Shown here piece after piece: positions 2,628 through 52,890 of a DNA stretch of 64,000 nt. A model generated the notes under the pieces. It made no database searches, was not told the DNA's origin, and was given only the letters and a program-made list of their open reading frames with translations. The stretch lies in the NCBI GenBank assembly GCA_028820405.1, contig JAPPJI010000025.1:609-64608 (forward strand). Direction: 5' to 3'. Each line of letters begins with the position of its first letter. Positions within the stretch are counted from its first letter, which is position 1. The translations under genes and the position numbers were made by a program. The stretch comes from Candidatus Kaiserbacteria bacterium (lineage in GTDB: Bacteria > Patescibacteriota > Minisyncoccia > Phycocordibacterales > JABAAK01).

Positions 2628-4718
2628 ATGCAATCCACAACGCCTATCGGTGACTGCTTTCCCGGGACTCGAAAACAGCAACGAAACGCGTTAGAACGAC
2701 TCGGCATCCACACTGCACGCGACCTCCTCTACCACTTCCCGAACCGATACATCAATTTTGCAGACGGCGGACAATCCGGCGGAACTATCACCGGAACTAT
2801 CACCGGCATACACAAGCGTCGAACCGGCGGAAAACGGCGTGTCATGGTGGCTGAAGCAACAATTGTTGCTCAGGGCGAGCGAGTACGGGCACTCTGGTTT
2901 CACCAGCCGTACATCGCAACGAAGTACGCAAAAGGAGATGTCGTCACCCTCAATGGCACGTGGTCAGGCAAGAATAAGCCGTATCTTGCCAATCCGATGA
3001 TCACGCATGGAGACGAAACCTCGCAACAGAGCAGAACACCGGACACCCTTACCCCCCTATACCCGGAAACACACGGCATATCCTCCCGATGGCTGCAGAC
3101 AAAGATTGAGGAACTGCTTCGTGACGATGCAATTAAGAACATAGAAGACCCGATACCGGAGGATGTTCGGAAACGACTCCGTCTTCCCCGCCTTTATGAT
3201 GCCCTCCTCCTCACCCACAAACCGAGGACGACGAATGACCATGAAGTCGCGAAGAAGCGGTTTGTCTTTGAGCAGGTTTTCCTGCTCCAAATCCGCCAAC
3301 ATCTCACAAAACACACACGGATGCAGCGATCTGCGTTCCCGGTACCTGCCAGCATACAATCTGCCCATGCGTTTATGAAAAGCACCTTTTCATTCACCCC
3401 GACAAAGGGGCAGCGGCGGGCTGTCAGCGACATTATCCGAGACATTAAGAAGAAAAAACCCATGGCACGACTTCTTGAAGGTGATGTCGGCTCAGGAAAA
3501 ACAGCGGTAGCCGCCGCCGTTGCGTACGGCGTCGTCACGAGCACCACGGACAGCAATCGACCGCAGGTCGCATACCTTGCTCCTACCGATATCCTCGCAC
3601 GGCAGCAGTTTGAAACATTTGTTGACCTTTTCAAAACAATGCCGGTACACGTCGGCTTTTTGAGCGGAAAAATCTGTCGTAAGTTTCCGTCAAAGACACA
3701 ACCGAGCGAAGCAACTGACGTGCCGAAAACTCGCATGAAACGGATGATTGCGAGCGGGGAACTTGATGTCGTCATCGGCACACACGCCGTCATTCAAAAA
3801 GATGTTGCGTTTCGAAACCTCGCCCTCGCCGTTATCGACGAACAGCATCGATTCGGTGTCGCACAGCGGAAACAACTGGTCAGTGCAAGCAGAGACACCC
3901 TGCCCCACCTCCTCTCAATGACCGCAACACCCATTCCCCGCACCCTTGCCCTGACGATGTACGCTGACCTTGACCTCAGTGTGCTCGATGAAATGCCGTC
4001 AGGACGAAAACAGGCGGTAACAAAGGTGCTTGCATCACGGGATAAAGGGGAGGTATACGACCGCATACGACAGGAAATTGATCGGGGACACCAGGCATAC
4101 GTACTCTGCCCCCGCATTGAGGAACACGGATCGTCGCCTATGCGATCCTTGAAGAAAGAGTACCGACACCTCGCAGACAGCGTCTTTCCCGACCGATCAG
4201 TCGCCATGCTGCATGGAAAAATGACACCGAAGGAGCGGGAACATATCGTGGACGCATTCAACGACGGATCTATTGATATTATCGCCTGCACAACGGTGAT
4301 AGAAATTGGGGTAAACGTGCCGAATGCCACCACCATTGCAATCTTGCACGCAGAACGGTTCGGTCTGGCACAACTGCACCAAATCAGGGGACGAGTCACC
4401 AGAAGCACGAAGCAGCCGTACTGCTATGCTGTCACTGACAGCAAAAACGAAGATACGCTTCAACGGCTCCGTGTCTTTGAAGAAACACACAGCGGGTTTG
4501 ACCTTGCGGAACAAGACCTTACCATGCGAGGCAGCGGTGACCTTGCCGGTTTTAGGCAGTCCGGTGTACCGGACATGATCACCGAAGGACTGAAGAATCC
4601 GAAACTGGTCGAATATGCACGAAAAGAAGCCCAGCACATCGTTGCAAAAGATCCGTCCCTTACCGCCTATCCGCTCATTCAAAAACAGATTGACCAGCAA
4701 GCGGCGGAAAACGCCTAG
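2628..4718 (+). CDS. recG: ATP-dependent DNA helicase RecG
   Basis: It has the RecG wedge domain, helicase motifs GSGKT and DEQHRFGV, and a C-terminal TRG region. The start is set at MQSTTPIGD. Confidence 0.9.
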   Translation: MQSTTPIGDCFPGTRKQQRNALERLGIHTARDLLYHFPNRYINFADGGQSGGTITGTITGIHKRRTGGKRRVMVAEATIVAQGERVRALWFHQPYIATKYAKGDVVTLNGTWSGKNKPYLANPMITHGDETSQQSRTPDTLTPLYPETHGISSRWLQTKIEELLRDDAIKNIEDPIPEDVRKRLRLPRLYDALLLTHKPRTTNDHEVAKKRFVFEQVFLLQIRQHLTKHTRMQRSAFPVPASIQSAHAFMKSTFSFTPTKGQRRAVSDIIRDIKKKKPMARLLEGDVGSGKTAVAAAVAYGVVTSTTDSNRPQVAYLAPTDILARQQFETFVDLFKTMPVHVGFLSGKICRKFPSKTQPSEATDVPKTRMKRMIASGELDVVIGTHAVIQKDVAFRNLALAVIDEQHRFGVAQRKQLVSASRDTLPHLLSMTATPIPRTLALTMYADLDLSVLDEMPSGRKQAVTKVLASRDKGEVYDRIRQEIDRGHQAYVLCPRIEEHGSSPMRSLKKEYRHLADSVFPDRSVAMLHGKMTPKEREHIVDAFNDGSIDIIACTTVIEIGVNVPNATTIAILHAERFGLAQLHQIRGRVTRSTKQPYCYAVTDSKNEDTLQRLRVFEETHSGFDLAEQDLTMRGSGDLAGFRQSGVPDMITEGLKNPKLVEYARKEAQHIVAKDPSLTAYPLIQKQIDQQAAENA

Positions 4719-4753
4719 CACACCTTGCAAAAAACACGCTACTATGGAGAAGT

Positions 4754-5722
4754 ATGCGAAAGGGTAACAGTCTCGCTATCGGCATCTTTTTTGCACTCTG
4801 TGTCGGCGTCGGTCTCTTTCTGTGGACGCAAAACAGTACACCTCTGTCACCAGAGAACCCGGGTCGCTTTGCACAGTACGATCTCGCCACTGACACAACG
4901 CTCGCATCAATCAATCTCAATGATGTTCTCTCCGGCGGTGTCAGAAAAGACGGCATCCCCGCTATCACCGATCCGGTCTTTCTCCCGCTCGCAGAAACAG
5001 ATGTGCGGGAGAGTGCCCGAGGCATCCTCGTACAACACAACGGCATGAGCCGATTTTATCCATACAGTATTTTGGTGTGGCATGAGATTGTTAACGACAC
5101 ATTGGATGACCTGTCAATCGCCGTCACCTACTGCCCACTCTGTGATTCAGCACTGGTGTTTGACCGGTTGGTGCAAGGAACTCTGCTCCAGTTTGGTGTG
5201 AGCGGACTGCTCTTTGAGTCAAACCTTCTCATGTACGACACGGCAACCGAATCATTGTGGTCACAATCAAACCGTCGTTCCGTCGTCGGCACCTACACCG
5301 GCACTGAACTCTCTCTCGTTCCGTTCCAAGTGCTGAGACTCAGCGAGGTGCGAGAAAAATACCCGACAACAGAGGTGCTCAGCACCGACACCGGATACGC
5401 CAGAAACTACGGCGACACGCCCTATGACGGCTATACCGACACCGAGCAGACGCTCTTCCCGATATCGATAACAGACAAACGGTTTCCGGCGAAAGATATT
5501 TTTTATGTCATTCCGTTCAGGGGACGATCACTCGCAGCTCGGTACCACGATATTTCTGAAGGGACGACGTCGTTTTCAGTCGATTCATTCGCCATCACCA
5601 TCACCCGGGACGGCGATGAGATTGTTGCACAACATGGCAACGAATTACTCCCCGGATATTTTGAACTATGGTTCTCTTGGGCAGTCCACCACCAGGATGA
5701 CGGTGTTGTTCTCAGGCAGTAG
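4754..5722 (+). CDS. secreted DUF3179-like protein
   Basis: It has an N-terminal signal/transmembrane segment. The motifs DGIPAITDP, YCPLCDSA and LLMYD resemble the DUF3179 family. The assignment is from memory. Confidence 0.45.
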   Translation: MRKGNSLAIGIFFALCVGVGLFLWTQNSTPLSPENPGRFAQYDLATDTTLASINLNDVLSGGVRKDGIPAITDPVFLPLAETDVRESARGILVQHNGMSRFYPYSILVWHEIVNDTLDDLSIAVTYCPLCDSALVFDRLVQGTLLQFGVSGLLFESNLLMYDTATESLWSQSNRRSVVGTYTGTELSLVPFQVLRLSEVREKYPTTEVLSTDTGYARNYGDTPYDGYTDTEQTLFPISITDKRFPAKDIFYVIPFRGRSLAARYHDISEGTTSFSVDSFAITITRDGDEIVAQHGNELLPGYFELWFSWAVHHQDDGVVLRQ

Positions 5723-5745
5723 CGGATCGTGTATACTGTGAGTAT

Positions 5746-6306
5746 ATGACGACAACAAAAATCATTATTATTCTTCTTATTGCCGGTGCCGTTATCGGAT
5801 CCATTCTCTATAGCGGACAAGATTATGAACCTGGAGTAGTTGAGGACGTGCAACTACTCAGAGAGGATACTCAAGGAAATGAAACCGAAGCAGTGCTCTC
5901 CTTTGAGGAAGAGGTCCCTGACGCTGTGTCAGATTCGGAAGACCTCTCACTCCTCAATGAGGACGCTGCTAGCCCTGCATCAGAAACGGAATCCGTGCTT
6001 GAAGACGACATTCCGGCAAATTTGACCGCAGCCCTTCAAGAAGGGACGCCCGTGCTCTTCTTTCACGCCTCATGGTGTCCAACTTGCCGTGCACTTGCAA
6101 AAGAGCTAGAAGAGCGATCTGACGAAATCCCTTCCAACATCAGTGTTGTTACCGTTGACTACGATTCTGAGAAAGAACTTCGAAGGCGGTATAACATTAC
6201 CCGCCAGCACACCCTCGTCGTTCTCGACAGCAACCTGGAACAGGTCGGACCATCCTGGGAAGGTGGTGGTGTTGACGAGATTCTTAATCGATTCGGAGTT
6301 GAGTAG
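5746..6306 (+). CDS. membrane-anchored thioredoxin-family protein (CxxC)
   Basis: It has an N-terminal transmembrane segment, an acidic linker, and an FFHASWCPTCR thioredoxin active site. Confidence 0.7.
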   Translation: MTTTKIIIILLIAGAVIGSILYSGQDYEPGVVEDVQLLREDTQGNETEAVLSFEEEVPDAVSDSEDLSLLNEDAASPASETESVLEDDIPANLTAALQEGTPVLFFHASWCPTCRALAKELEERSDEIPSNISVVTVDYDSEKELRRRYNITRQHTLVVLDSNLEQVGPSWEGGGVDEILNRFGVE

Positions 6307-35119: not shown

Positions 35120-38100
35120 CTAGACGGAAAGCCGACCCGGTTGTTTGACGAGTACCACATGCACCGGTGTACCGTCAACGGTACACTCATGTGCACCGTC
35201 ACGAGGACTCTTGTCATAGATTACTTCTTCAACCCGAAGTTCTTTCTTGATATGGTCTTCAAACTGTTTGAGCTGCCGCTGTTTTTCCTCTGTCGGAAGG
35301 TAGACATACATACGTGCAAGCACCTCGGTGAGTGAACACTGCATCTTCTTTCGTACCCCCTGTATGTTACGTATGTATGACCGAACAAACCCTTCCGTAC
35401 GAAGGCTGTCGTCAAGTACCGTATCAAGAACGACTACTTCGTCTGCTGCAGGGGTAACAATGACCTCTTTGACGTTGACCTCTTCCGCAATAATATGCTT
35501 CCCCTCGTCGGACACCGCCTCCTTAATCGTTACCGATCGAAGCGGCTGCCGAACGGGGATACCGGCACGGGACCGCACCTCATGTGCAAGAGAGACAATG
35601 TGTCGAATGCTGTCAACCGCTTCCACCACATCCTGACGGACCGGCATTGACCGTGACCATGAGCAAAGATGAACACTCTCGGGAAACGGGATAACGGGCG
35701 AATGATATTTTTTAAGGCGGCTGAAGAGGTGTTCCGCAAAAAACGGGGCGATCGGGGCTATACATTTTGCCGTCTCCGTCAGTACAAAACGAAGTGTCTC
35801 CCGAGCCCGCGCACCGTCCGCACTGTCACTTCGGATACGGTCACGGGATCGGCGAATGTACCAGGTCGAAAGATCGTCAACAAACGCAGCAATTGGTCCG
35901 GCTGCAAGATCCATTCGGTACCCTTCAAACCCGTCCGTCATGCTTTTTTGCACCATTGCAAGACGTGATCGGATGTAGGTATCAAGCAGTGCGGTATTTC
36001 TGCCGCGCCGATGCGGCAGGTGTGCGTACGACTCATAGAAAGAAAAACAGTTGCCGAGACGGGTATAGATTTTTTTGTACACATCGTGCACCTGCTCCTC
36101 CTGAAAATCAATGTCCTGACCCCGGACAACGGGCGAGGCGAGGAGGTAGTGGCGGAGTGAGTCGGCACCGTACTGATCAATCAGCTGCAGCGGATCGGTG
36201 TAGTTTTTCAGTCTTTTGCTCATTTTTCGGCCGTCCGAAGCACGAATCAGACCGGTGGTCACCACATTTCGATACGGTGCCCGGTCAAAAAGACCGACGG
36301 CAATTGCCATGAGACTGTAGAACCAGCCGCGGGTTTGATCAAGTCCTTCGCAGATAAAGTCAGCAGGGAAGCCGTTTCCCCGCTCCGGATCAAACGAACT
36401 GCCTCGTGCAAACGGATAGTGGTGTGACCCGTAGGGCATCGCACCGGACTCAAACCAACAGTCGAACACCTCCTTGTTGTGGTATGCCGGGTTGCCGTTA
36501 TCGTCAAAGAGCACAATATCATCAATGTACGGACGGTGAAGATCAATGTCACCGTGTTCATCCCAGTGCACTCCCTTGTACGGCACTGAGGTAATACTGC
36601 AGTACGGTGTCGGCAGGATACTCACCGAGGCAATACGACTGGTCATTTCAGACACCAACGGTTCCATTGCCTTCGCCAAATTTATCACCATCCGGTGCGT
36701 CACCACAACGATCGTTTCCCCTTCGTACTGTGCGTCAACGGTTTCAAGAAATGTCTGGATTCGTCGATAGATGTCCCGATATGATTCACCGTCCGCCACC
36801 GGTGTATCAATATGCTTATACAACGCTCCCCTCTTTATCTCCCACAGCAGTTCACGGATCGGTCTGTTATTCAACGACGGAACCTGCAGTTCAGTTAAAA
36901 GCGGATCTTCAATCACTTTTGCACCTGTTTCTTTCGCAATACGTTCAGCGGTTTGTTTGGCGCGCGGAAGCGGTGAACAAAAAATAACGGTCGGCGATCG
37001 GTCTCGTATCTTTTTCCCTGCCGCTGTTGCCTGCCGCTTCCCCCGCTCAGTGAGACCGTCGCTGTCGCCCGGCTGGCAGTGGAAGAGTTTTCTTCGGTTA
37101 TGTTTTGATTCACCATGCCGAACAAAGAGATAGCTGTTCTTCGGACGCATACGGTCAAGCATTTCCTCAATTGACCCAACGACAAATGTTTCTCCGGTTT
37201 TCTTCACCGTCCACACCGGCAGCGGTGCGCCCCAAAATCGTGTTCGTGACACCGACCACTCTTTGGCACTCGCAAGCCAGTTACCGAACCGACCGTCACG
37301 GAGGTGACCGGGTACCCAACGAACGGTTCTGTTCTCCGCGACCATCTGATCCCGCAGCCGCTCCGCATGGACGAACCAAGAATCCGTCGCGTAGTTGAGG
37401 AGGGGGGTATCACACCGCCAACAGATCGGGTAGCTGTGCTCAACAGTTCCCCGATGCAGGAGGACTCCTCGCCGGTCAAGTTCATTGCAAATCTTCTCAT
37501 CAACGTCTTTCGGGTTACCGCTCTCCTTCGGCCGCAGACCGGCGAATTCTTTAAGGTCATCAGTAAAGACACCGTCAATGGTAACGTGATGACGAATCGG
37601 CAGCCGCTCTCTCTTCGCAAGTTCCATGTCCTCTTCTCCGTACGCGGGTGCAAGGTGCACGACAGCGGTACCGGTCGAATCTTCTACATACGGTGCATGG
37701 TATATCCGATGCACCCGCTGCTGCTCATCGTCAGAAACGTGCAAGGAGGGCAACGGCGGTCGGTACCGGTGACCGATGAACTCACTCCCCTTCTTTTTTG
37801 CAACAATCGTCGCGTCACCGAGAATACCGAGTGCTCTCTCGTGCAACACATATCGCTTCCCCTCTTTCTCCGCGACAACATAATCCAGGTCTTTGTGCAC
37901 TCCGAGTGCAACGTTGCCAAACAGCGTCCACGGAGTCGTCGTCCAGGCAACAAATGAGAGTCCCTCGTCTTCCGTGCTGGGAAACAGAACATAGACTTCC
38001 GTGTCGGTGAGGGTGGTATAGTTTTCTGCAACTTCAGCGTTTGAAATAGTTGTTGAGCATCGGGGACAGAGGTGGAGGATTTTTCTTCCGGCACTTGCAA

Positions 38101-38659
38101 GTCCCTTGCGGTGCAGTCCTCTGAAGGCTGCCCACACTGACTCTGTATACGCAACATCCATGGTCCGGTACCCCCGACTCATATCAACCCAACGACCGAT
38201 CCTCTGAATGAACTGTTCCCACTCTTTTGCATGGCGGAACACCGTTTCCCGGGCTTTCTCATTGAACTCACGGATCCCGTGTTCCTCAACATCCCGTTTT
38301 GTCTTAAGTCCCACCGCCTGTTCAACCTCAACCTCAACCGGCAGTCCGTGACAGTCCCAGCCCCACCGACGGCGAACAGTGTACCCCCGCATTGTCTTAT
38401 ACCGAAGCAGTGCATCCTTCACGACGCTTTGCAAGATACTGCCGTAGTGCGGGAGACCGGTTGCAAACGGAGGACCGTCGTAGAAGATGAACGGTTTCTT
38501 TCTCCGAAACGTATTCCGAACCTTGTTCCAAAACCCCCGCTCACGTCGTTCACTTTTTTCAAAAATATCATTCTCCTGCCAGAACGTGAGAACCTTTTTT
38601 TCCTGTTCCGCAACCGATGAACGACGTGCATCATCAGCAGGCGGCTGTTTGACGCCCAT
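35120..38659 (-). CDS. ileS: isoleucyl-tRNA synthetase (type 2) with an inserted histidine-phosphatase (PGAM-like) domain
   Basis: IleRS is identified by PPFATGLPHYGS (the HIGH motif), the CP1 editing motif TTPWTLFGN, GRKMSKRLKNY (KMSKS) and an anticodon-binding domain. Between FWGAPLPVW and DLHRPYID there is an extra roughly 190 aa carrying LFVRHGESKHN, LTERGKRQA and VVVTHRM histidine-phosphatase motifs. The start is set at MGVKQ... Confidence 0.85.
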   Translation of the reverse strand: MGVKQPPADDARRSSVAEQEKKVLTFWQENDIFEKSERRERGFWNKVRNTFRRKKPFIFYDGPPFATGLPHYGSILQSVVKDALLRYKTMRGYTVRRRWGWDCHGLPVEVEVEQAVGLKTKRDVEEHGIREFNEKARETVFRHAKEWEQFIQRIGRWVDMSRGYRTMDVAYTESVWAAFRGLHRKGLASAGRKILHLCPRCSTTISNAEVAENYTTLTDTEVYVLFPSTEDEGLSFVAWTTTPWTLFGNVALGVHKDLDYVVAEKEGKRYVLHERALGILGDATIVAKKKGSEFIGHRYRPPLPSLHVSDDEQQRVHRIYHAPYVEDSTGTAVVHLAPAYGEEDMELAKRERLPIRHHVTIDGVFTDDLKEFAGLRPKESGNPKDVDEKICNELDRRGVLLHRGTVEHSYPICWRCDTPLLNYATDSWFVHAERLRDQMVAENRTVRWVPGHLRDGRFGNWLASAKEWSVSRTRFWGAPLPVWTVKKTGETFVVGSIEEMLDRMRPKNSYLFVRHGESKHNRRKLFHCQPGDSDGLTERGKRQATAAGKKIRDRSPTVIFCSPLPRAKQTAERIAKETGAKVIEDPLLTELQVPSLNNRPIRELLWEIKRGALYKHIDTPVADGESYRDIYRRIQTFLETVDAQYEGETIVVVTHRMVINLAKAMEPLVSEMTSRIASVSILPTPYCSITSVPYKGVHWDEHGDIDLHRPYIDDIVLFDDNGNPAYHNKEVFDCWFESGAMPYGSHHYPFARGSSFDPERGNGFPADFICEGLDQTRGWFYSLMAIAVGLFDRAPYRNVVTTGLIRASDGRKMSKRLKNYTDPLQLIDQYGADSLRHYLLASPVVRGQDIDFQEEQVHDVYKKIYTRLGNCFSFYESYAHLPHRRGRNTALLDTYIRSRLAMVQKSMTDGFEGYRMDLAAGPIAAFVDDLSTWYIRRSRDRIRSDSADGARARETLRFVLTETAKCIAPIAPFFAEHLFSRLKKYHSPVIPFPESVHLCSWSRSMPVRQDVVEAVDSIRHIVSLAHEVRSRAGIPVRQPLRSVTIKEAVSDEGKHIIAEEVNVKEVIVTPAADEVVVLDTVLDDSLRTEGFVRSYIRNIQGVRKKMQCSLTEVLARMYVYLPTEEKQRQLKQFEDHIKKELRVEEVIYDKSPRDGAHECTVDGTPVHVVLVKQPGRLSV

Positions 38660-38757
38660 ATCTACGGGAGTATACCACAGTGTCTCTTGCAAAAAGAAAA
38701 GGTGCCCGCACATATTGTTGCGGACACCTTCAGAGATCTTCCATGATCACCCTTCCT

Positions 38758-42626: not shown

Positions 42627-44447
42627 ATGCGGAACCGTTACCTCCCACTGCAGCCTACAGCAGGCCTTATCGGCAAACTCCCCGCATCAGATCGCCTTAT
42701 TTTCTGCCTCCTTTTCCTTGCACTGGTCACTCAGTTTTTCTTCGTCCTGCATTACGCAAACCAAGCATACGTTATCGAGACGCCGCTTCGGGGGGGTACA
42801 TTGCGCGAAGGAACCGTCGGCGCTATTGCCCATCGAAACCCGATCTTTGCGAACAGCCCGGGGGAGAAAACGCTCGCAACCCTCCTCCACGCCGGACTCC
42901 TGAGGCGAACCCCTACCGGCACCCTGACAACCGAACTTGCTGAACATTGGCAGCAGGAAGGAAATCGGTTCACCTTTTGGATTCGCGGTACCGCGACATT
43001 CCATGACGGTTTTCCGGTCACTGCAAATGACGTTGTCCATACCATATCTATGATACGTGCCAGAGACCATGACCCACACAGCCCATGGCACGATGTCATC
43101 GCCGAGGAAAAAGACGAACAGACCGTCGTGGTCACTATCCCCGAAGGAAACCTCTTTTTCCCCGAACAGTTCACCGCACCGATTCTTCCGCAGCACGTTT
43201 GGAAAAAAATACCGACCGATCAGCAAAAAACATATCAGGGGTCCGGCGTGCACATCGGTGCAGGACCGTTTCGATATGAACGAGAGGTCTTTCAAGACAT
43301 TGAACAGCCAAAAAGTATTACGCTTTCAGCATACCCTGCGTACGTGTTCGGCCGACCGTACCTTGACCGCATTGTCATACACCTCTACGGATCACCATCT
43401 GACCTCGTCAGAGCATATCATCGGAATGAGATTGACGCACTGCACAGTATTTCCCCGTCAGAAATAGCTTTGATCACGCAACAGGGGAGCGGAACCCTCT
43501 ATACCGCATCAACCAACCGACTGTTCGGCATATTTTTTAACACTGAAGACGGTCATCTGCTGCAGGACCCTTTCCTGCGAAGTGTTCTCTCTCAGTACGT
43601 TGATCGGAATCGTATCGTTGGAGATGTTTTCCTGAATTTTGCAACGGCAACACAGGCACCGCTGCCATCTGATGCCGACACAGTCTGGCGGGACGTTACC
43701 CACAATGACCTTGCACAAACACTCGAAGACATCGGATGGATCATTGACCCTGAAAGTGGTGTCCGGGTGAAAAACGAAACGCCACTCCACCTTGCACTGG
43801 TGACCCCTGACGTACAAGACATGCGGTCAATCGCACAAATTATCACGGACGATTGGAGAGAGCTCGGTATTGCCGTTACGGTCACAGATCTCCCGCCGGA
43901 CCTCGTATCCATTGCAATACGTGACGGAACGTTTGACGCAACCTTGTACGGCTATGAGGCGGAAAAACCGACAGACCTGGTGCCGTTATGGCTCTCAAGT
44001 GATGCCGTCAACATTGCCATGGCGACAAACTTTGGAAGCCCAACCCTTAACAAGCTCCTCAATGATCTCGGGCAACAAGACCCGCCCGAACGCTTCTCCA
44101 CCGGCCAAACTGACAGATGGCGTTCTCTGGTGTATGATGAGGTTAAGGCAGAGATGCTTCAGAGTGTTCCCGCTGTATTTCTCTACTCGCCGCAATTCCT
44201 CTTTGTCATGCCAACAAGATTGAAAGGAATCGGGGCGGGGGGCAGATCTCTTGGTCACGTTACCGACCCCAGTGATCGGTTTATTGATGTCCATACGTGG
44301 CATACCCGACGGGAGCGGGTATGGCGTATCCTACAGCATCACCATCGTATTTATACCTATGACGACACGAAACAACGGCAGACGACAGGCACGAGGACAG
44401 CGGTCTCAGAGACGACCGCCCCATCGCCACGGTCAGCCTGGGAATAA
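42627..44447 (+). CDS. ABC transporter substrate-binding protein, family 5-like (peptide/nickel type), orphan
   Basis: It has an N-terminal transmembrane anchor and an SBP_bac_5-like layout. No permease genes are adjacent. The 3' end overlaps the RNase J paralog start, so the stop and start are uncertain. Confidence 0.55.
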   Translation: MRNRYLPLQPTAGLIGKLPASDRLIFCLLFLALVTQFFFVLHYANQAYVIETPLRGGTLREGTVGAIAHRNPIFANSPGEKTLATLLHAGLLRRTPTGTLTTELAEHWQQEGNRFTFWIRGTATFHDGFPVTANDVVHTISMIRARDHDPHSPWHDVIAEEKDEQTVVVTIPEGNLFFPEQFTAPILPQHVWKKIPTDQQKTYQGSGVHIGAGPFRYEREVFQDIEQPKSITLSAYPAYVFGRPYLDRIVIHLYGSPSDLVRAYHRNEIDALHSISPSEIALITQQGSGTLYTASTNRLFGIFFNTEDGHLLQDPFLRSVLSQYVDRNRIVGDVFLNFATATQAPLPSDADTVWRDVTHNDLAQTLEDIGWIIDPESGVRVKNETPLHLALVTPDVQDMRSIAQIITDDWRELGIAVTVTDLPPDLVSIAIRDGTFDATLYGYEAEKPTDLVPLWLSSDAVNIAMATNFGSPTLNKLLNDLGQQDPPERFSTGQTDRWRSLVYDEVKAEMLQSVPAVFLYSPQFLFVMPTRLKGIGAGGRSLGHVTDPSDRFIDVHTWHTRRERVWRILQHHHRIYTYDDTKQRQTTGTRTAVSETTAPSPRSAWE

Positions 44448-46146
44448 GCAGGCCTTTATTCCGAGACCCGGACACAATGAGCTGCGCATTGTCACGCTCG
44501 GCGGTGTCTCAGAAATCGGAAAGAACATGTATGCCGTTGAGTACAACGACAGCATCATTCTCCTGGAATGCGGAACTATGTTCGGTGAGAGCGCCACACC
44601 CGGTATTGACGCCGTGATGCCGAACGTCCAATATCTCAAGAACAGAAAACAGGCACTGCAGGCACTTGTCCTCTCTGACGCTTCTTTGCAGCACACCGGT
44701 GCCATTGCCAACGTTGTTCGGGAACTCGGACCCTTTCCCATTTACTCGAGAAAACTGACGCAGGCAGTTGTCGAAAACCGGCTGCGACAATCTCGACGGT
44801 CACCGTCCCTTGATTTTCACCCGATTGAAGAAGAAACCTCGGTGAGTCTTCAGAACGGCATATCTCTTCACTTCTTCGGTGTCTCAGCCGGTTCTCCGAC
44901 AACACTCGGCGTTGTGATTGAAACACCGACCGGTTCGGTGGCATACACAGGATCACTCGGTCCGGACCACAAAGACGGCACGGTCTCCGCCGGTGAAGAG
45001 AAACGGTTTGCCCGTCTCAGAAACACGGATGTTCTTCTCAGTCTCGCAGATTCGGTGAACGCAGAACGTCCGGGGCTCTCTCTGACTGACGAGGCTGTCG
45101 CTACTGATGTGCTGAGTATGGTTGCAGAGGCTCCCGGTCGTGTTCTCGCTCCGCTCATCCATTCGCAGGTCAAACGAAACTGCACTATTATTGAAGGTGC
45201 GCTCAAACAAGGTCGCCGGGTGTATGTTGAAGATTCACTTCTCCTTGACAACTTGATGACGGCATGTGATCTCGGCATCACTGACGTGCCGAAAGAATCA
45301 ATTCGGTCAATCCAGGACCTTGATGAAACGAATGATTCAAAGAAAGTACTGCTCCTCTTTTCCGGCGGGGAAAACGAAGACTACCCGTCCCTTGAGAGAG
45401 TCTCGCTTGATATGAACAAACGCGTTAAAATTGAATACGACGACTCTGTTATCTTCCCGTCTCCAATTATTGCGGCAAGTGCGCGGGCAATTCAGGATAT
45501 GAAAGACCGACTCTCCCGGCTCGGTGCATCTATCCTGTCATACAACACCAGTGATGCACGGGGGAGTATTCACCCATCAAAAGATGAACTCAGCTGGATA
45601 CACCGGCAGAGCAATCCGAAGTTTTTCGTCCCGGTCCAGGGATACCACTACATGCTGACCGCACACACGCATATTCTGCAGAGCACCGGTATGGCAAAGG
45701 ACTCCTGCATCATTCCGGACAACGGATCCCTCATTGACATCAGCCCGGACGGATCATCGATGAAGGTACAGAAGCAGAAGGCATTGAGCACGCCGGTCTC
45801 TGCAGACGGTCACCTGTCCTCAATGGTGCAGGATGTCGTCATACAAGATCGACAGACACTCTCACAAGAAGGTGTTTTCATTGTCATTATCTTTATCGAC
45901 CAGCGACGTCTGACACTGAAAAAATCTCCTGATGTTATTTCCCGAGGGTTTGTCTATCTTCGAGAGTCTCGCGACCTTGTCTCGCATGCCCGCATCATCG
46001 TAAAGAAGGTTGCGGAACGGGAGGCAAAGAAAGCGGGTCGTATTGACATTGAAACCATGAAAAAAGCGGTTAAGAAGGAACTGCAGTCGTTCCTTATCGG
46101 CGAGACGAATAAACGTCCGATCGTTATCCCTGTTGTGTTTACCTAA
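44359..46146 (+). CDS. RNase J paralog with degenerate catalytic motifs (likely a pseudo-enzyme)
   Basis: It is full-length with a beta-lactamase/beta-CASP architecture and aligns to the downstream copy. SDASLQH replaces HxHxDH, ECG replaces DCG, and PVQGYHY replaces PIHGYHY. Confidence 0.7.
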   Translation: MTTRNNGRRQARGQRSQRRPPHRHGQPGNKQAFIPRPGHNELRIVTLGGVSEIGKNMYAVEYNDSIILLECGTMFGESATPGIDAVMPNVQYLKNRKQALQALVLSDASLQHTGAIANVVRELGPFPIYSRKLTQAVVENRLRQSRRSPSLDFHPIEEETSVSLQNGISLHFFGVSAGSPTTLGVVIETPTGSVAYTGSLGPDHKDGTVSAGEEKRFARLRNTDVLLSLADSVNAERPGLSLTDEAVATDVLSMVAEAPGRVLAPLIHSQVKRNCTIIEGALKQGRRVYVEDSLLLDNLMTACDLGITDVPKESIRSIQDLDETNDSKKVLLLFSGGENEDYPSLERVSLDMNKRVKIEYDDSVIFPSPIIAASARAIQDMKDRLSRLGASILSYNTSDARGSIHPSKDELSWIHRQSNPKFFVPVQGYHYMLTAHTHILQSTGMAKDSCIIPDNGSLIDISPDGSSMKVQKQKALSTPVSADGHLSSMVQDVVIQDRQTLSQEGVFIVIIFIDQRRLTLKKSPDVISRGFVYLRESRDLVSHARIIVKKVAEREAKKAGRIDIETMKKAVKKELQSFLIGETNKRPIVIPVVFT

Positions 46147-46159
46147 CCTATACTTACCT

Positions 46160-48001
46160 ATGAATACCAGATCAAAACAATCACCGAACAGAGATGAAGG
46201 AAAGAAGACCCCGCTTCCGCGAGGTCTCAGGCAAAAGCCGATTCGTCAGCAAGGACCGTTAGTCGGAACACGGGAGCTCTCTGTCAGCGGTGACGTATCG
46301 TCAACACTCGACATTCCGAAACCGGAAAAGGGTGCAGTGCGGGTTCTCTTCTTCGGCGGCTGCGGTGAGATTGGTAAGAACATGTACGGTCTTGAGTGTA
46401 ACGGCGAGATCCTCCTCCTTGACTGCGGAATGAAGTTCGCAACCGAAGACACGCTCGGTGTTGATTTTCTCGTCCCGAATATCCAGTACCTCGAAGAGCG
46501 AAAAGACATGATCAAAGGTCTTGTTATTTCACACGCCCACCTTGACCATATTGGCGGCATCCCGGTTGTCCTGGATCGAATCGGCAATCCGCCCATCTTC
46601 TCACGGCGACTGAGCATTGAGTTCATCAAAAGTCGCCAGGGTGAGTTTGAGCTGAAGAAACCCGCCATCTATCACGAAGTTGAAAAGGAGACGACGCGAA
46701 AACTCTCTGACACCTACACGCTCACCTTCTTTTCTGTCACCCACACTATTCCGGACTCTATGGGTATCGTTATCGATACACCCATGGGATCCGTCGTATT
46801 TACCGGAGACCTTAAGCTGGCACACGACGGCGGCGTGGTTGACCCGAGCGAAGAGAAGGCATTCTCAATATTTAAAGACAGAAATATTCTCCTGACTATG
46901 GCGGACTCAACCAATGCCGATCGTCCGGGGTTCTCTCTGCCGGAAAAGAAAGTGGTTGAAACAATCGGTGAGATTATTAAAACAACAAAAGGTCGTATTG
47001 TTCTCTGTTCATTCTCCTCTCAAATTGAAAGAACGATTCATGTTATTGAACATGCCATTGCAAACGGACGAAAAATCATTGTGCAGGGACGATCAATGAT
47101 TACCAGTCTTACCATCGCATTTGACCTCGGTCTCCTGAAGATTCCGCCAAACGCTATTGTTCCTGTTGAATCCATGGGTGACTACCCGAAGGACAAACTG
47201 TTAATCCTTGCAACCGGAGCTCAGGGAGACAACTTTACCGCCCTTGACCGCATGTCCCGCAGCAGCCATCGGCACATAAAGCTCACGAGTGATGACACGA
47301 TTGTTTTTTCCTCGTCAGTAATCCCAGGGAACGAAGAACCGGTACAAAACCTCAAAGACCGTCTCTCTCGGCTCGGGGTTAACCTCATTACGTATCAGAC
47401 AAGTGACGTGCACTCAAGCGGTCACGCAAATCGTGACGAGCTTCGCTGGATACATGAGCACATCGGCGCAACATTCTTTACCCCCATCCACGGCTACCAC
47501 TATATGCTCTCCGCCCACGCACAAATCCTCCAAGAAATTGGCATGCCGAAGGAAAACACTGTTCTGCCGGATAACGGGGCTATCCTTGACATCAGTCCGG
47601 ACGGAAAAACTATCACCAGACGTGAAGAGATGATGCCGACCGAATTAACCGTTGTCGACGGAAACGCAATAGGGACTGTGCAGGATGTTGTGCTTGATGA
47701 TCGAAAAACACTCAGAAGTGAGGGCATCTTCGTCGTTATCGTCCTTGTCGACCAGGCAGCAAAGCGGGTACGAAAATCTCCTGATGTTATTTCCCGAGGT
47801 TTCGTCTATCTTCGAGAATCACAGAAGCTGGTCAATCGGGCACGATTCCTTGCCAAGAAGACAACGGAACAGCACATGAAACGAAATCGATTTATCAACA
47901 TTGACTCCCTCAAGCGGTCACTCACGAAAGACGTTCAGAACTTTCTTTTCTCTGAGACGAAGAAACGACCCATCGTTATTCCTGTTGTCTTTGTTACGTA
48001 G
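46160..48001 (+). CDS. rnj: ribonuclease J
   Basis: GGCGEIGKNMY, ISHAHLDHIGG, beta-CASP motifs (SSGHA, PIHGYHY) and a C-terminal domain match RNase J. Confidence 0.85.
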   Translation: MNTRSKQSPNRDEGKKTPLPRGLRQKPIRQQGPLVGTRELSVSGDVSSTLDIPKPEKGAVRVLFFGGCGEIGKNMYGLECNGEILLLDCGMKFATEDTLGVDFLVPNIQYLEERKDMIKGLVISHAHLDHIGGIPVVLDRIGNPPIFSRRLSIEFIKSRQGEFELKKPAIYHEVEKETTRKLSDTYTLTFFSVTHTIPDSMGIVIDTPMGSVVFTGDLKLAHDGGVVDPSEEKAFSIFKDRNILLTMADSTNADRPGFSLPEKKVVETIGEIIKTTKGRIVLCSFSSQIERTIHVIEHAIANGRKIIVQGRSMITSLTIAFDLGLLKIPPNAIVPVESMGDYPKDKLLILATGAQGDNFTALDRMSRSSHRHIKLTSDDTIVFSSSVIPGNEEPVQNLKDRLSRLGVNLITYQTSDVHSSGHANRDELRWIHEHIGATFFTPIHGYHYMLSAHAQILQEIGMPKENTVLPDNGAILDISPDGKTITRREEMMPTELTVVDGNAIGTVQDVVLDDRKTLRSEGIFVVIVLVDQAAKRVRKSPDVISRGFVYLRESQKLVNRARFLAKKTTEQHMKRNRFINIDSLKRSLTKDVQNFLFSETKKRPIVIPVVFVT

Positions 48002-48818
48002 CTGACTCACCGCAGAGGACATACCCTCCGCCACTTTTTTCAATCATCCCGTCACGAATCAATCCGCTGAGTGCCTGCTCCCACGTCTGCCGCGTGCAAG
48101 GAACTATGTGACGATCCGTTACCGAACAGGTACCGCTCACCAGCGTCTTGATGATGACACCTCGAGCCTGTCGAACCGATCCCTTGAATGTACCCTGCGA
48201 AGAAGTATTCCGACAACTCACTCGAATGCCGGACCGTTTGAGGTGTGCACCGTAGTCCATAAGAGCGGCATAGAGGTCACGGTACGCCAGTGATCGTCGC
48301 TCCGCTTCAGAAAGCAGACGCTCCATGACTGTTGCGATAGACGTGTCACTGACATCACTCTCACCGTGCATGCAATGGTGCACGACAACGGTCCGGATAT
48401 TTGTTTCAATTGCAATCGCCCGCTTGTTGTATGCAAAAATAACAATCGCCGCTGCAGTGTACGGACCGATCCCGGGGAGTGATCGGAGCGCTTCTTCATC
48501 TGACGGAACAATTCCGTCATGTTCACTCACAAGTAATTTCGCCGTGTTCTGCAGTGCAACTGCCCGTCGGTTATACCCAAGACCGACCCAACACGCAAGA
48601 ACATCTTGTCGCTTTGCACTTGCAAGATCGTGCACCGAAGGGAAGCGTGAGAGAAAGTTTGAAAATGCCTCAACGACACGACCGGTCTGTGTCTGCTGAA
48701 GCATGTACTCAGAAACGAGAACATGGTACGGATCATAGGATTGCCGCCACGGAAATGACCGGCGGTTATCTGTATCAAACTGCAGTACCTGAGAGAGAAG
48801 TGTGGAAACTGATGTCAT
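47994..48818 (-). CDS. HhH-GPD base-excision DNA glycosylase (MutY/Nth-like, no obvious Fe-S Cys cluster)
   Basis: FPWRQSYDPYHVLVSEYMLQQTQ and LPGIGPYTAAAI match the HhH-GPD family. Confidence 0.7.
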   Translation of the reverse strand: MTSVSTLLSQVLQFDTDNRRSFPWRQSYDPYHVLVSEYMLQQTQTGRVVEAFSNFLSRFPSVHDLASAKRQDVLACWVGLGYNRRAVALQNTAKLLVSEHDGIVPSDEEALRSLPGIGPYTAAAIVIFAYNKRAIAIETNIRTVVVHHCMHGESDVSDTSIATVMERLLSEAERRSLAYRDLYAALMDYGAHLKRSGIRVSCRNTSSQGTFKGSVRQARGVIIKTLVSGTCSVTDRHIVPCTRQTWEQALSGLIRDGMIEKSGGGYVLCGESAT

Positions 48819-49296: not shown

Positions 49297-52200
49297 CTAC
49301 GCCGCCGGTCGATTCACAAAACGAACCGTGTTTGGATTTGTGTCATCATATCGACCTTCCGGACTCAAACTCTTGCCAAGTACCACCTTTTCAACACCAC
49401 CTTCACGCATAACCGGAACGTTCATACGATTCGACACCATGGACTGCACAAACAGATCAAAGAACGCACTGACATCAACACCGTATGAACTGTATTCAGG
49501 TTCGATGAGAACGGCGGGGTCTTTTCCTTCAGCGTCTCGAACCACCTTCACTGCAGACCGTGACACGCTTGCCTCAAGGATAGGGAGGATATCCGCATTT
49601 TTAATTCCTTCGCGCTTTACCCTGTCCCATCGTTCCTCTGAAAATGCAGTCAGGTCAACCGCATACATGACCTTGCAGTTTGGGTCACCGACAAACCCCA
49701 TCAAACTTTTCGAATTCATGTTCTTCACATCATATTGGAGACAGGAAAGACCGCCCGTCGGATACTTACCAGTACGCCACAGAACACGGGGATCATCGGT
49801 AAAGAGGATGCCGAGTCGGTGCTTTCTTCCGATCTCTGTTCCTTCTTTAAGGACTGATTCAATATTCTCAAGGACATGACCGAATGATCCCGTCTGCGCA
49901 GCATGATCCCCACTTCCCTTCTTCTTTCCGAAATAGTTTTTAAGGCGGTCAATCACTGTCTTGATCGTTTCCTCACTCAGACCGTTCGATATCCTGTTGT
50001 TCGCAATTTTTTCACCGGTTAGTGTGAGCAATTTCAGAATATTCTCGATAACACGAACCTCCTCTCGTTTCTCATAGAACTGCTGACGATTCTTCACTTC
50101 GGTGTCAAAACCGTATCTCTCAAAGAGGTCAGAAGAAAGTGCCGAAGCGTACTGCTGCTCTACCTGCTGAACCGATGCATCAATTGCCTGACGCATACTG
50201 TCGGTGAGTACGGTCATTGAAACCCCTCGCTCGAGGACGTTATACCGTACCTGTATTTCTTTTCTGAGGTCTGCCGGAAGAAACTGTTTAACACGATTGA
50301 CAATATTCTTCATCTTGCTTCCCGGTTTCGTCTCCTCAGAGAGTATCGAAATCCACTGCCTGAGACTTGGAATTGCATGGTATTTGGTAATAGTGTCGAT
50401 TGCATTCGCATCGTTTTGAATACGTTCAAGTGTTTCGGTGATGATGACATCTTTCCCGTCAGGATCTTCCTCTGTTTTTTGCAGTACTGTTTCGATGACG
50501 GTTTGAATATGTTTTTCAGCGACACCCTCGGTATCCGGCACACCCGCATCCTCGTTATATATATGTTTGTCCCGCAACACCGCATCTTGCAGCAAGTGGT
50601 ATATTTTCTCTGACTTCTTCGCTGCCCCGGCAGAAAGTACAACGTCACCGACATCAATAACCTGGTCTGTTTTCCAAAGATTGAGCTGTTCTTCTGAAAG
50701 GTGCCCTATCTGATCTTCAATAATCTCCTGATTCCTTTCGGCGCTGTACCGCCATGACTTCCAGTTCTCTTGACTATCAGTGTGTGCAACAATGTCGGTG
50801 ATATATTTCCGCATGTTTGGAAACTTACCGAGGTAGGTAAAAACTGGCTCAAGATTTCCCCAGGAATCAAAAAGCGTCATTGCCCGATCCGTATCAATAT
50901 CGGGATGCGAGAGTACCCGTTGCACAAACTGACGGGTTGACTCATCAACAAGACGTGCCAGATCCTCAAGATTTTGTGACTCTGACGAGATAAGGTGCTC
51001 TGCAGTAAACGAAGCATCTACCGCCTCTAAGATAGACTGTCGTTCATTCGCATTGCCGTATATCTGTACTGCATTCTCTTTGAGTGATTGTGTTGAGGTG
51101 TCCAAAAAAGCGATGCTGTTAAAAATGTCCATGAGGTGCTCAACGTCCGATTCTGTTTCCAGGGTAACCTGACGCAGTTTCTCGCCCAACACCCGAACGA
51201 CACTTCGATCAGTGTGAAGCACGTCAACGAATGAACGAAAGACTGCATCAGCGGTTTCGGCACGCAATCCGTTTGCAAAAAGGTTTTGAAAAATGTCCAA
51301 CACACGATACTCGCCAGAAATATGGGCAAAGGCAACCATTTGCATGAAGGTTCGCTTTGGTATGTCACGGTATTGATTTCCCCACCGCTTGTACAGAGGA
51401 AATGCAGTAAAATCAAAATCTTTCAGGAGGGCAAATGACTCTGTTGATTTATTTAATACGGCAATTTGATCATCGCTATTGTTGTACAAAAAGTCCATAA
51501 ACTGCACGTCACGCCAATCAATATCTTTCTCGGGCTGATTCTCAAACCAAGCACGAACAAACACCCTGCCCGAATCAGACAACCACTCATTTTCTTCGTT
51601 GAGCAGCTTTCGTATGATTGCATGCCGAACCACAGGATCAAGACGTTTAAACGAAAGCATCTCCGCCAATGCTTCACTTGCATCCATTATCGGTGACTGC
51701 AAGAGAACAAGGAGCGCGGACTCTTGGGCAGGACCAAGACCCCACAAAGAATCGGGGTCGTCTGACTGACCTGATTCATGCACCACCTTCGCGAGATCTT
51801 CAATCACATTACTGATACCGCCAAGCTTTTCATTTGCTTTGCTCAACACCGTCACTGCTTGAAGTCGATCAAGCGACGATGCGTTGGCATCAGTCGCAAT
51901 CCTGCCCTGCTCTTCAAGGGCGTCATCTAGTATCGACTGTGTTTCCCTATTAGCGTTACGAAGATCAATAATGCTCTCCCACTGCCAGTGTGCGACATCA
52001 TCTCTGTATCGTTGCATAAAATGTTCGGAGATGTCCATTCCATTGAAAAATGTGTCAGCAAACTGCTTTACCGACTGATCCTTCCATCGGCTGCTTCGTC
52101 GATAGAAGTAGTCAAGAGCGTCATGCAAGACTGATTGGTATGCACCCATACCCTCTCTCGGAGCAAACGTGGCAACGGCATCTTGAAGTATTGCAGCACC

Positions 52201-52890
52201 GCCATGGTGAACGACATACCCCATCATCTTTTTACGAAGATCGTTTTTAAATGTCTCTCGACTGTTAATAAAGTCCTCAATATCTTCCGTAATACCGAAC
52301 TGTTCCCGCACTATCGCGATACTTTCTTTTGCACTATCAAGCCGATCCTGCGCTGAACCAACCCAGATACGGTCAAAAATGCTCATGATGTGGGTTTTGA
52401 CAAGATCTTCTCCGACATGGGCAAGGTCAGATTCTGACAGGTTAAGAACGTCTTTGCCGTACGAGGCAATATCCGCAGCGGTGTCACCACCGGCATCCCC
52501 AGACATTTCCGGACTTTCAATCGACGGAAGAAAATGTGATTGGAAGAGTGAAACCATGCGTGATGATCCTTCCCCCGCACCGTCACTCTGATGCAGTGTG
52601 GCAGAGAGGAAAAGAAACGTTTCTGCCGCTTCACCCTGCAATGCCTTGATAATCTGTTCCCGATCAACACCACCTCTTCCGGCACCTCTTTCTATCTCCT
52701 CTATCTTCCGTTGCATCTGATCATCCGGTCTCGGCTGATTCCACGGAAACTGACGAATGTCGGAAAAGAGTTCTCGATATGCCTCCTGAACCTCTTCAGA
52801 TGACAATGCATCGTACGCTTCTTCCCTGCGCTCAACCCGCACTCTCTTTGTCTCAAGCCCCCGCATTTTCATGCATGCAGTATATCTCAC
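49297..52890 (-). CDS. very large (about 1190 aa) cytoplasmic protein with no recognisable domain
   Basis: A single uninterrupted ORF with no transmembrane segment, signal peptide or P-loop, and a charged, helical-looking composition. The start is either M1 or M7. Confidence 0.6.
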   Translation of the reverse strand: MRYTACMKMRGLETKRVRVERREEAYDALSSEEVQEAYRELFSDIRQFPWNQPRPDDQMQRKIEEIERGAGRGGVDREQIIKALQGEAAETFLFLSATLHQSDGAGEGSSRMVSLFQSHFLPSIESPEMSGDAGGDTAADIASYGKDVLNLSESDLAHVGEDLVKTHIMSIFDRIWVGSAQDRLDSAKESIAIVREQFGITEDIEDFINSRETFKNDLRKKMMGYVVHHGGAAILQDAVATFAPREGMGAYQSVLHDALDYFYRRSSRWKDQSVKQFADTFFNGMDISEHFMQRYRDDVAHWQWESIIDLRNANRETQSILDDALEEQGRIATDANASSLDRLQAVTVLSKANEKLGGISNVIEDLAKVVHESGQSDDPDSLWGLGPAQESALLVLLQSPIMDASEALAEMLSFKRLDPVVRHAIIRKLLNEENEWLSDSGRVFVRAWFENQPEKDIDWRDVQFMDFLYNNSDDQIAVLNKSTESFALLKDFDFTAFPLYKRWGNQYRDIPKRTFMQMVAFAHISGEYRVLDIFQNLFANGLRAETADAVFRSFVDVLHTDRSVVRVLGEKLRQVTLETESDVEHLMDIFNSIAFLDTSTQSLKENAVQIYGNANERQSILEAVDASFTAEHLISSESQNLEDLARLVDESTRQFVQRVLSHPDIDTDRAMTLFDSWGNLEPVFTYLGKFPNMRKYITDIVAHTDSQENWKSWRYSAERNQEIIEDQIGHLSEEQLNLWKTDQVIDVGDVVLSAGAAKKSEKIYHLLQDAVLRDKHIYNEDAGVPDTEGVAEKHIQTVIETVLQKTEEDPDGKDVIITETLERIQNDANAIDTITKYHAIPSLRQWISILSEETKPGSKMKNIVNRVKQFLPADLRKEIQVRYNVLERGVSMTVLTDSMRQAIDASVQQVEQQYASALSSDLFERYGFDTEVKNRQQFYEKREEVRVIENILKLLTLTGEKIANNRISNGLSEETIKTVIDRLKNYFGKKKGSGDHAAQTGSFGHVLENIESVLKEGTEIGRKHRLGILFTDDPRVLWRTGKYPTGGLSCLQYDVKNMNSKSLMGFVGDPNCKVMYAVDLTAFSEERWDRVKREGIKNADILPILEASVSRSAVKVVRDAEGKDPAVLIEPEYSSYGVDVSAFFDLFVQSMVSNRMNVPVMREGGVEKVVLGKSLSPEGRYDDTNPNTVRFVNRPAA

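Follow-up and report, generated by a model that had tools for sequence, protein, structure and literature searches.

The 64,000-nucleotide (nt) stretch of DNA analysed here (the window; contig JAPPJI010000025.1, positions 609 to 64,608, forward strand) comes from a Candidatus Kaiserbacteria bacterium and carries two full-length RNase J paralogs that lie head to tail on the + strand. We refer to the two open reading frames (ORFs) as ORF1, upstream, and ORF2, downstream (Table 1). ORF2 is a canonical RNase J. ORF1 retains the RNase J fold without the two-metal catalytic centre, and is probably a pseudo-RNase J, predicted from its sequence to be catalytically dead. The original prediction for this locus had proposed two full-length, head-to-tail RNase J genes, each with a basic N-terminal extension, and the gene coordinates, the Pfam matches and the pairwise identity bear it out. 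Over 562 aligned residues the two proteins share 41% identity (E 5e-169); residues 1-40 of ORF1 contain 10 K/R and no D/E (isoelectric point, pI, 12), and residues 1-58 of ORF2 contain 12 K/R and 6 D/E (pI 10.6).

Fold and active site of the two paralogs

Both proteins match the Pfam families RNase_J_b_CASP and RNase_J_C, and Lactamase_B and RMMBL match ORF2 only; ORF1 gives a weak match to Lactamase_B_2 and none to Lactamase_B. Against the NCBIfam model TIGR00649, which has a cutoff of 400 bits, ORF2 scores above it at 457 bits and ORF1 falls below it at 332 bits. The architecture of ORF2 is the expected one, namely, a metallo-beta-lactamase (MBL) domain, a beta-CASP domain, a linker, and a C-terminal domain. 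When compared with solved structures, both proteins strongly match RNase J proteins only. The best PDB match of ORF2 is Bacillus subtilis J1 (3zq4, E 5e-121), and the best matches of ORF1 are nearly equal, to Staphylococcus epidermidis J2 (E ~1e-77) and B. subtilis J1 (E ~1e-75). AlphaFold2, given 27 family members, predicts the RNase J fold for ORF1 (predicted local distance difference test, pLDDT, 76.7; predicted template modelling score, pTM, 0.70). Foldseek aligns the resulting model to RNase J structures with E values of about 2e-44 to 1e-30 and template modelling (TM) scores of 0.62-0.85, the top match being an RNJ2-RNJ1 model. By Pfam, model and Foldseek, then, ORF1 has both the fold and the domain order of an RNase J.

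We located the metal ligands by alignment to B. subtilis J1 (3zq4), where they are H74/H76/D78/H79/H142/D164/H390. In the Deinococcus radiodurans enzyme, zinc 1 is held by H84, H86, and H153 and zinc 2 by D88, H89, and H403, with D175 bridging the two; Ala substitutions of the ligands impair activity, and the other functional residues include D209 in motif A, H381 in motif B, and H377/S379 in the 5'-phosphate pocket (PMC4477667). All seven ligands are kept in ORF2 (H125, H127, D129, H130, H195, D217, and H444; ligand string DHHDHHDDHSHH), as are the motif A Asp (D249), the motif B His (H422), and the His and Ser of the 5'-phosphate pocket, and its motifs read LLDCG, SHAHLDH, DVHSSGH, and PIHGYHY. 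The same positions in ORF1 are occupied by D107, S109, Q111, H112, A177, S199, and Q427, so that six of the seven ligands are substituted, as against none in ORF2. Only H112 is kept, and therefore the canonical two-metal centre cannot form. The motifs of ORF1 read LLECG (E70), SDASLQH, and PVQGYHY. What does persist in ORF1 is the motif A Asp (D231), the motif B His (H405), which is invariant in the family, and the phosphate-pocket Ser (S403), which is at least 90% conserved.

These residues agree with the original prediction, which had the downstream copy keeping HAHLDH, DCG, and the beta-CASP histidines and the upstream copy carrying SDASLQH, ECG, and a Gln in the PIHGYHY element; the losses at Ala177 and Ser199 were not on its list. 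It had further called the upstream copy probably zinc-binding-defective, and the alignment to B. subtilis J1 places the substitutions at the metal ligands themselves.

Table 1. Coordinates of the tandem RNase J locus in the window and of degenerate RNase J copies at other loci (positions of the latter are those of the locus named)
Feature	Position	Strand	Basis or remark
ORF1, degenerate RNase J paralog, predicted catalytically dead	44359..46146	+	595 aa from ATG
ORF1 motif II SDASLQH, residues 106-112, in place of xHxHxDH	44674..44694	+	D107, S109, Q111 for His, His, Asp
ORF1 motif III VSAGS (ORF2 VTHTI), His ligand to Ala177	44881..44895	+	Alignment
ORF1 motif IV TGSLG (ORF2 TGDLK), bridging Asp to Ser199	44947..44961	+	Alignment
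ORF1 motif B / 5'-phosphate loop DARGSIH	45553..45573	+	Pocket His to Arg401; Ser403, His405 kept
ORF1 motif C PVQGYHY, His ligand to Gln427	45631..45651	+	Alignment
ORF1 C-terminal domain, residues 504-595, best-conserved part of the dead copy	45868..46146	+	Pfam RNase_J_C residues 494-594
ORF1-ORF2 spacer, 13 nt	46147..46159	+	No terminator-like site on the + strand
ORF2, canonical RNase J, catalytic motifs all intact	46160..48001	+	613 aa from ATG
ORF2 intact motif II SHAHLDH (H125, H127, D129, H130)	46529..46549	+	Alignment to 3zq4
SBP_bac_5 family gene, conserved upstream neighbour	42627..44447	+	Pfam SBP_bac_5, E 9e-46
Second degenerate family, member in L053	4118-5833		
Second degenerate family, member in L055	3192-4913		
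Second degenerate family, member in L089	5001-6746		
Second degenerate family, member in L090	5001-6707		
L027 upstream copy, half degenerate RNase J	4200-6005		HSHTDH kept; motif IV Asp and motif C His lost

Conservation of the degenerate copy

Relatives of ORF1 were collected from a search of 5.8 billion proteins, which returned about 30 clusters sharing 46-100% identity with ORF1, none of which has a Lactamase_B match in Pfam; one is named "ribonuclease J [Candidatus Kaiserbacteria bacterium]". About 27 orthologs at 46-72% identity, from independent assemblies, have the same degenerate pattern. Their consensus reads TDASMKH, TGNLK, VKGSGH, and PxQGYHY (the same ligands are missing in 27 of the 27 aligned members), where the canonical relatives have THGHLDH, TGDLK, VHSSGH, and PxHGYHY. 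Because the same substitutions recur in so many independent assemblies, a sequencing error in the upstream copy can be excluded. The replacement residues E70, D107, S109, and Q427 are themselves at least 85% conserved; most members have Asp or Glu at position 177, and position 111 varies (K, Q, T, S). In all, 12 positions of the dead family are conserved and yet noncanonical (E70, D107, S109, V233, D244, D326, E338, N339, P367, P369, A375, and Q427), and the old active-site region has therefore been rebuilt and not merely eroded. The comparison of ORF1 with its ortholog at locus L081 (72% identity) gives a nonsynonymous divergence (dN) of 0.19 with the synonymous divergence (dS) saturated, that is, a dN/dS of about 0.08 or lower; the dN of the partner gene, ORF2, against the same locus is 0.11. 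ORF1 thus belongs to a conserved family under purifying selection, as befits a pseudoenzyme.

A search of 50%-identity representatives merged this family into two to three representatives and is unusable for estimating its size. Other degenerate RNase J-like representatives are present in that set: of the 150 RNase J representatives closest to that of the degenerate family's profile, some 15 full-length proteins have no more than two of the seven aligned ligands, including P0215, P0221, P0239, P0243, P0268, P0274, and P0283. The occurrence of dead RNase J-like proteins may thus extend beyond the family of ORF1 and the second clade described below.

The two copies differ in where they are constrained. 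Seven genomes having both genes were compared domain by domain, giving 21 genome pairs, and the dead copy is less conserved than its live partner in all 21 (mean identity 52% vs 70%). The difference is large in the N-terminal MBL part (dead 50% vs live 70%), in the beta-CASP domain (47% vs 75%), and in the C-terminal MBL part (60% vs 76%). It is nearly absent for the linker and C-terminal domain taken together (60% vs 61%), and in the core of the C-terminal domain the dead copy is the more conserved (62% vs 58%). In solved RNase J structures the C-terminal domain mediates dimerisation, and the contact residue R544 within TKRRP is critical in B. subtilis (bioRxiv 10.64898/2026.05.27.728192); at the aligned positions, TNKRP and TKKRP, both window proteins have Lys-Arg. 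From the domain identities we therefore conclude that constraint has been relaxed on catalysis and substrate threading and kept on the dimerisation module.

Genomic context and origin of the pair

The gene order SBP_bac_5, dead J, live J is found in 7/7 orthologous loci (L081-L087). The spacer between the two J genes is 1-18 nt wherever the genes are called without overlap (the called genes overlap in L087), and SecG is frequently found farther upstream. As background, we used 80 Parcubacteria loci with a canonical RNase J, taken from among the matches listed of a contig search with a profile of the degenerate clade; the matches listed are canonical RNase J loci at 34-40% identity, and no Kaiserbacteria-type dead copy is among them. 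In 72 of the 77 single-J loci among these matches, as well as in all the tandem loci, an SBP_bac_5 gene is the immediate upstream neighbour of RNase J, on the same strand. It follows that SBP-J was the ancestral order and that the duplication took place in situ. A canonical relative, P0031 (locus L088), shares the neighbourhood (GroES/EL, SBP, J, HhH-GPD) but has no dead copy, so that either the dead copy has been lost there or the duplication came later.

In the window, the 3' end of the SBP_bac_5 gene overlaps the start of ORF1 by 89 nt in another frame (44359-44447). We found no alternative in-frame start in ORF1 ahead of the conserved core. The overlap is absent in most orthologous loci and amounts to 29 nt in L084. 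The public gene call for an identical protein (P0001, 539 aa) begins at an internal Met, and conserved strands are lost with it. The start regions of ORF1 and ORF2 (44345-44364 and 46146-46165) are alike and lack a Shine-Dalgarno sequence, reading ..TATTTATACCTATGAC.. and ..TATACTTACCTATGAA.., respectively, and both proteins start M-T/N-T-R; this similarity may date from the duplication or reflect a common initiation signal. From the spacing and a weak consensus scan, we infer that ORF1 and ORF2 are co-transcribed, because no terminator-like site lies between them on the + strand. The scan of the window for promoters and terminators gave nothing beyond the shuffled expectation. At its 3' end, ORF2 overlaps by 8 nt (47994-48001) a convergent gene of the HhH-GPD (DNA glycosylase) family on the - strand (47994-48818), a neighbour also seen in L081, L086, L087, and L088. 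Two 1197-aa ORFs flank the region (35120-38713 and, on the - strand, 49297-52890); on comparison they proved to be unrelated. A class I aminoacyl-tRNA-synthetase-like motif can be read by eye in the first of these.

Neighbour-joining (NJ) trees recover the dead family and its partners each as a monophyletic group (100% bootstrap in both cases). The two families and two canonical relatives together form one clade, with 71-72% support at full length and 60/60 with the C-terminal half. Because the duplication took place inside Parcubacteria, the ORF1/ORF2 pair is not orthologous to the Firmicute J1/J2 pair, and ORF1 does not appear to descend from the Firmicute duplication that gave rnjB. The tree holds no Firmicute J2 sequence, and the non-orthology rests on the Parcubacteria grouping together with the identities.

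Tandem pairs behind an SBP_bac_5 gene also occur in 3 of the 80 background loci (L027, L053, and L055, among the matches listed). The upstream copies of L053 and L055 belong to a second degenerate family of about 20 clusters (P0089-P0108) in other Parcubacteria. Its members are eroded still further than those of the ORF1 family: they read T[NS]SxLE[NY] at motif II and PxSGCHYM at motif C, lack the motif B His as well as the pocket residues, and lie between SBP_bac_5 and a canonical RNase J, with the same synteny in L089 and L090. The upstream copy of L027 is only half degenerate (Table 1), is 53% identical to its downstream partner, and may represent a younger stage of the same process. In the full-length NJ tree, the second clade falls near the Kaiserbacteria-type clade (44% bootstrap). 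We reject this placement as long-branch attraction because the second clade moves next to its own partners when the tree is built on the C-terminal half, where the rates of the copies are similar. In that tree every upstream copy falls with the lineage of its own partner, and the upstream copies never form a single clade (0/60). It is quite conceivable, though we hold the view only tentatively, that at least three independent in-place duplications occurred in which the upstream copy was killed (the Kaiserbacteria type, the second clade, and L027), and hence that an active/dead beta-CASP heterodimer is a recurrent arrangement. An old gene conversion of the 3' halves is a possible alternative origin.

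Two changes are common to all three degenerate lineages. The motif C His is lost in each of them, and the Gln of TGxQGE is replaced by Glu (in ORF1, GGENE at 45364-45378). All canonical copies examined, and staphylococcal J2, retain this Gln, and from the alignments its replacement looks convergent. We considered whether the change removes the RNA 2'-OH contact made by Gln316 of D. radiodurans and rejected this reading, as Gln316 maps two residues later (Asp in ORF2, Glu340 in ORF1).

Proposed role of the dead copy and comparison with known systems

We consider it fairly probable that ORF1 is a noncatalytic subunit or cofactor that pairs with the active ORF2. In this proposal, the pseudo-RNase J would be made together with the ORF2 protein encoded just downstream, and a heteromer that combines a live active site with a dead one would form through the conserved linker and C-terminal domains of the two. 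As a noncatalytic cofactor, the dead subunit would determine how stable the active subunit is, in what oligomeric state it occurs, or which substrates it chooses, and the dead subunit may still touch RNA 5' ends via the kept motif B and phosphate-pocket residues. Adjacency, short spacing, and the conservation of the C-terminal domain lend indirect support to such a role. The original prediction had likened the pair to J1/J2 pushed to a true pseudoenzyme. The six lost ligands, the purifying selection, the adjacency, and the C-terminal conservation all favour that view, with the qualification that the pair is not orthologous to the Firmicute one.

Several points weigh against pairing. Both the heteromer and the cofactor role are things we infer from sequence, and co-transcription is likewise read from the spacing and a weak consensus scan. 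Within the C-terminal domain, similarity between the two copies is 0.50 in the same genome and 0.47 between genomes, a small excess that is positive in 6 of the 7 genomes. The conservation of this domain fits a homodimer of the dead copy equally well. In most members of the family, Asp or Glu stands at the old motif II and III positions, where another, single-metal site is possible, although the window copy has Ala177 and Ser199. Finally, only the live copy is present in L088, and the dead copy is therefore dispensable in some lineages.

That the dead copy works alone, probably as a homodimeric RNA-binding protein that caps, protects, or chaperones RNA 5' ends or competes for substrates, seems to us unlikely. 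The motif B His and the pocket Ser are kept, a basic residue (Arg or Lys) stands in place of the pocket His, the N-terminal tail is very basic, and the conserved C-terminal domain is also compatible with homodimers, all of which would suit such a protein. However, the dead gene strictly adjoins the live one in the genomes examined, with spacers of 1-18 nt, which is more usual for subunits that are made together, and the second degenerate clade has dispensed with the motif B His and the pocket residues, yet shows the same arrangement. In addition, the precedents J2, CPSF100, and INTS9 are all subunits of heteromers.

Doubtful to a greater degree is the idea that ORF1 is still an enzyme, a weak or altered nuclease like staphylococcal J2 with a remodelled single-metal site (Asp107, Glu70, His112, Gln427, and the Asp/Glu at 177 in most relatives). 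The conservation of the replacement residues E70, D107, S109, and Q427 and the prevalence of Asp/Glu at 177 speak for it. So does the precedent that S. epidermidis J2 has D78H, H79A, D164E, and H389Q (PMC7864078) and staphylococcal J2 is described as weakly active (PMC11815676). J2, however, keeps H74, H76, and H142, which make up one complete metal site, and ORF1 keeps none of these. Moreover, the window protein has Ala177 and Ser199, position 111 is variable across the family, and the catalytic domains of the dead copy evolve far faster than those of the live copy. The last alternative, that ORF1 is a functionless duplicate heading for loss, could appeal to its faster evolution and to the related genome with the same neighbourhood and no dead copy, but it is highly improbable and effectively refuted by the conservation data. 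In about 27 lineages, with identities as low as 46%, the ORF is intact and full length; dN/dS is no higher than about 0.08, there are invariant residues, and the C-terminal domain is well conserved, all this in genomes that are known to be streamlined.

A noncatalytic partner for ORF2 thus remains our preferred reading, and it would matter for several reasons. Only three ribonucleases are retained in at least 90% of the genomes of the candidate phyla radiation (CPR), and RNase J is among them (PMC12641178); it probably has a central part in the RNA decay and rRNA maturation of these bacteria. The conservation of a dead copy of about 600 residues in streamlined genomes implies a strongly selected, noncatalytic job, and the annotation "ribonuclease J" overstates the activity of these proteins. 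We found no literature on a degenerate RNase J paralog in CPR bacteria, although the coverage was incomplete and this is absence of evidence only; full-text co-mentions of RNase J with Patescibacteria or CPR concerned only core-gene retention or a generic MBL survey.

Single-copy RNase J proteins (Thermus thermophilus, D. radiodurans, Mycobacterium tuberculosis, and Helicobacter pylori) have the same four-part architecture and fold, and ORF2 is an ordinary member of this group; ORF1 differs in having no metal centre and in falling under the NCBIfam cutoff. A closer likeness is to RNase J1/J2 (rnjA/rnjB), where an active RNase J is likewise accompanied by a paralog with a degenerate HxHxDH. RNase J2, a protein of Bacillota and Mollicutes, is a paralog of J1 whose motif is partly degenerate (HGHDEN in B. 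subtilis) and whose activity is very weak, and it forms a heteromer with J1; in B. subtilis, according to a 2026 preprint, it serves as a specificity cofactor of J1 through an inter-subunit contact, and its own catalytic site is not needed in vivo (bioRxiv 10.64898/2026.05.27.728192). Staphylococcal J2 even has Gln at the motif C position, as ORF1 does. Unlike J2, however, ORF1 groups with its own partner inside Parcubacteria, an independent origin; its identity to ORF2 is 41%, whereas Foldseek aligns it to the solved chains of J1 and J2 at ~26-28% identity. The loss is also deeper, at six of seven ligands; J2 keeps the first two His of motif II, and S. epidermidis J2 has four substitutions (PMC7864078). 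Furthermore, ORF1 and ORF2 are adjacent, whereas B. subtilis has rnjA and rnjB in separate operons (PMC7864078).

J1/J2 has itself been likened to CPSF73/CPSF100 (bioRxiv 10.64898/2026.05.27.728192). CPSF100 and INTS9 are dead beta-CASP paralogs that have lost their zinc ligands and pair with active partners via their C-terminal domains (PMC5934644). CPSF73/CPSF100 and INTS11/INTS9 thus resemble the present pair in joining an active MBL/beta-CASP nuclease to a paralog without zinc ligands. They differ in being eukaryotic, in belonging to another beta-CASP subfamily, in working within large complexes, and in having a C-terminal domain whose fold is different from that of RNase J; Foldseek matches of the ORF1 model to these proteins are weak (E ~1e-17, TM ~0.5). 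What sets the Kaiserbacteria pair apart from the known ones is its independent origin, its near-total loss of the metal centre, and its strict tandem arrangement. If the recurrent origin is true, the active/dead beta-CASP heterodimer was reached separately in CPR bacteria, Firmicutes, and eukaryotes. The pair also bears on the question, raised for Gram-positive bacteria, of whether J2 is an enzyme or a cofactor: should the recurrent origin and the proposed pairing be true, naturally dead partners would show that a J2-type role needs no catalysis. It would then offer a clean system in which to see how a dead beta-CASP subunit tunes a live one, and a bacterial parallel to CPSF73/CPSF100 and INTS11/INTS9.

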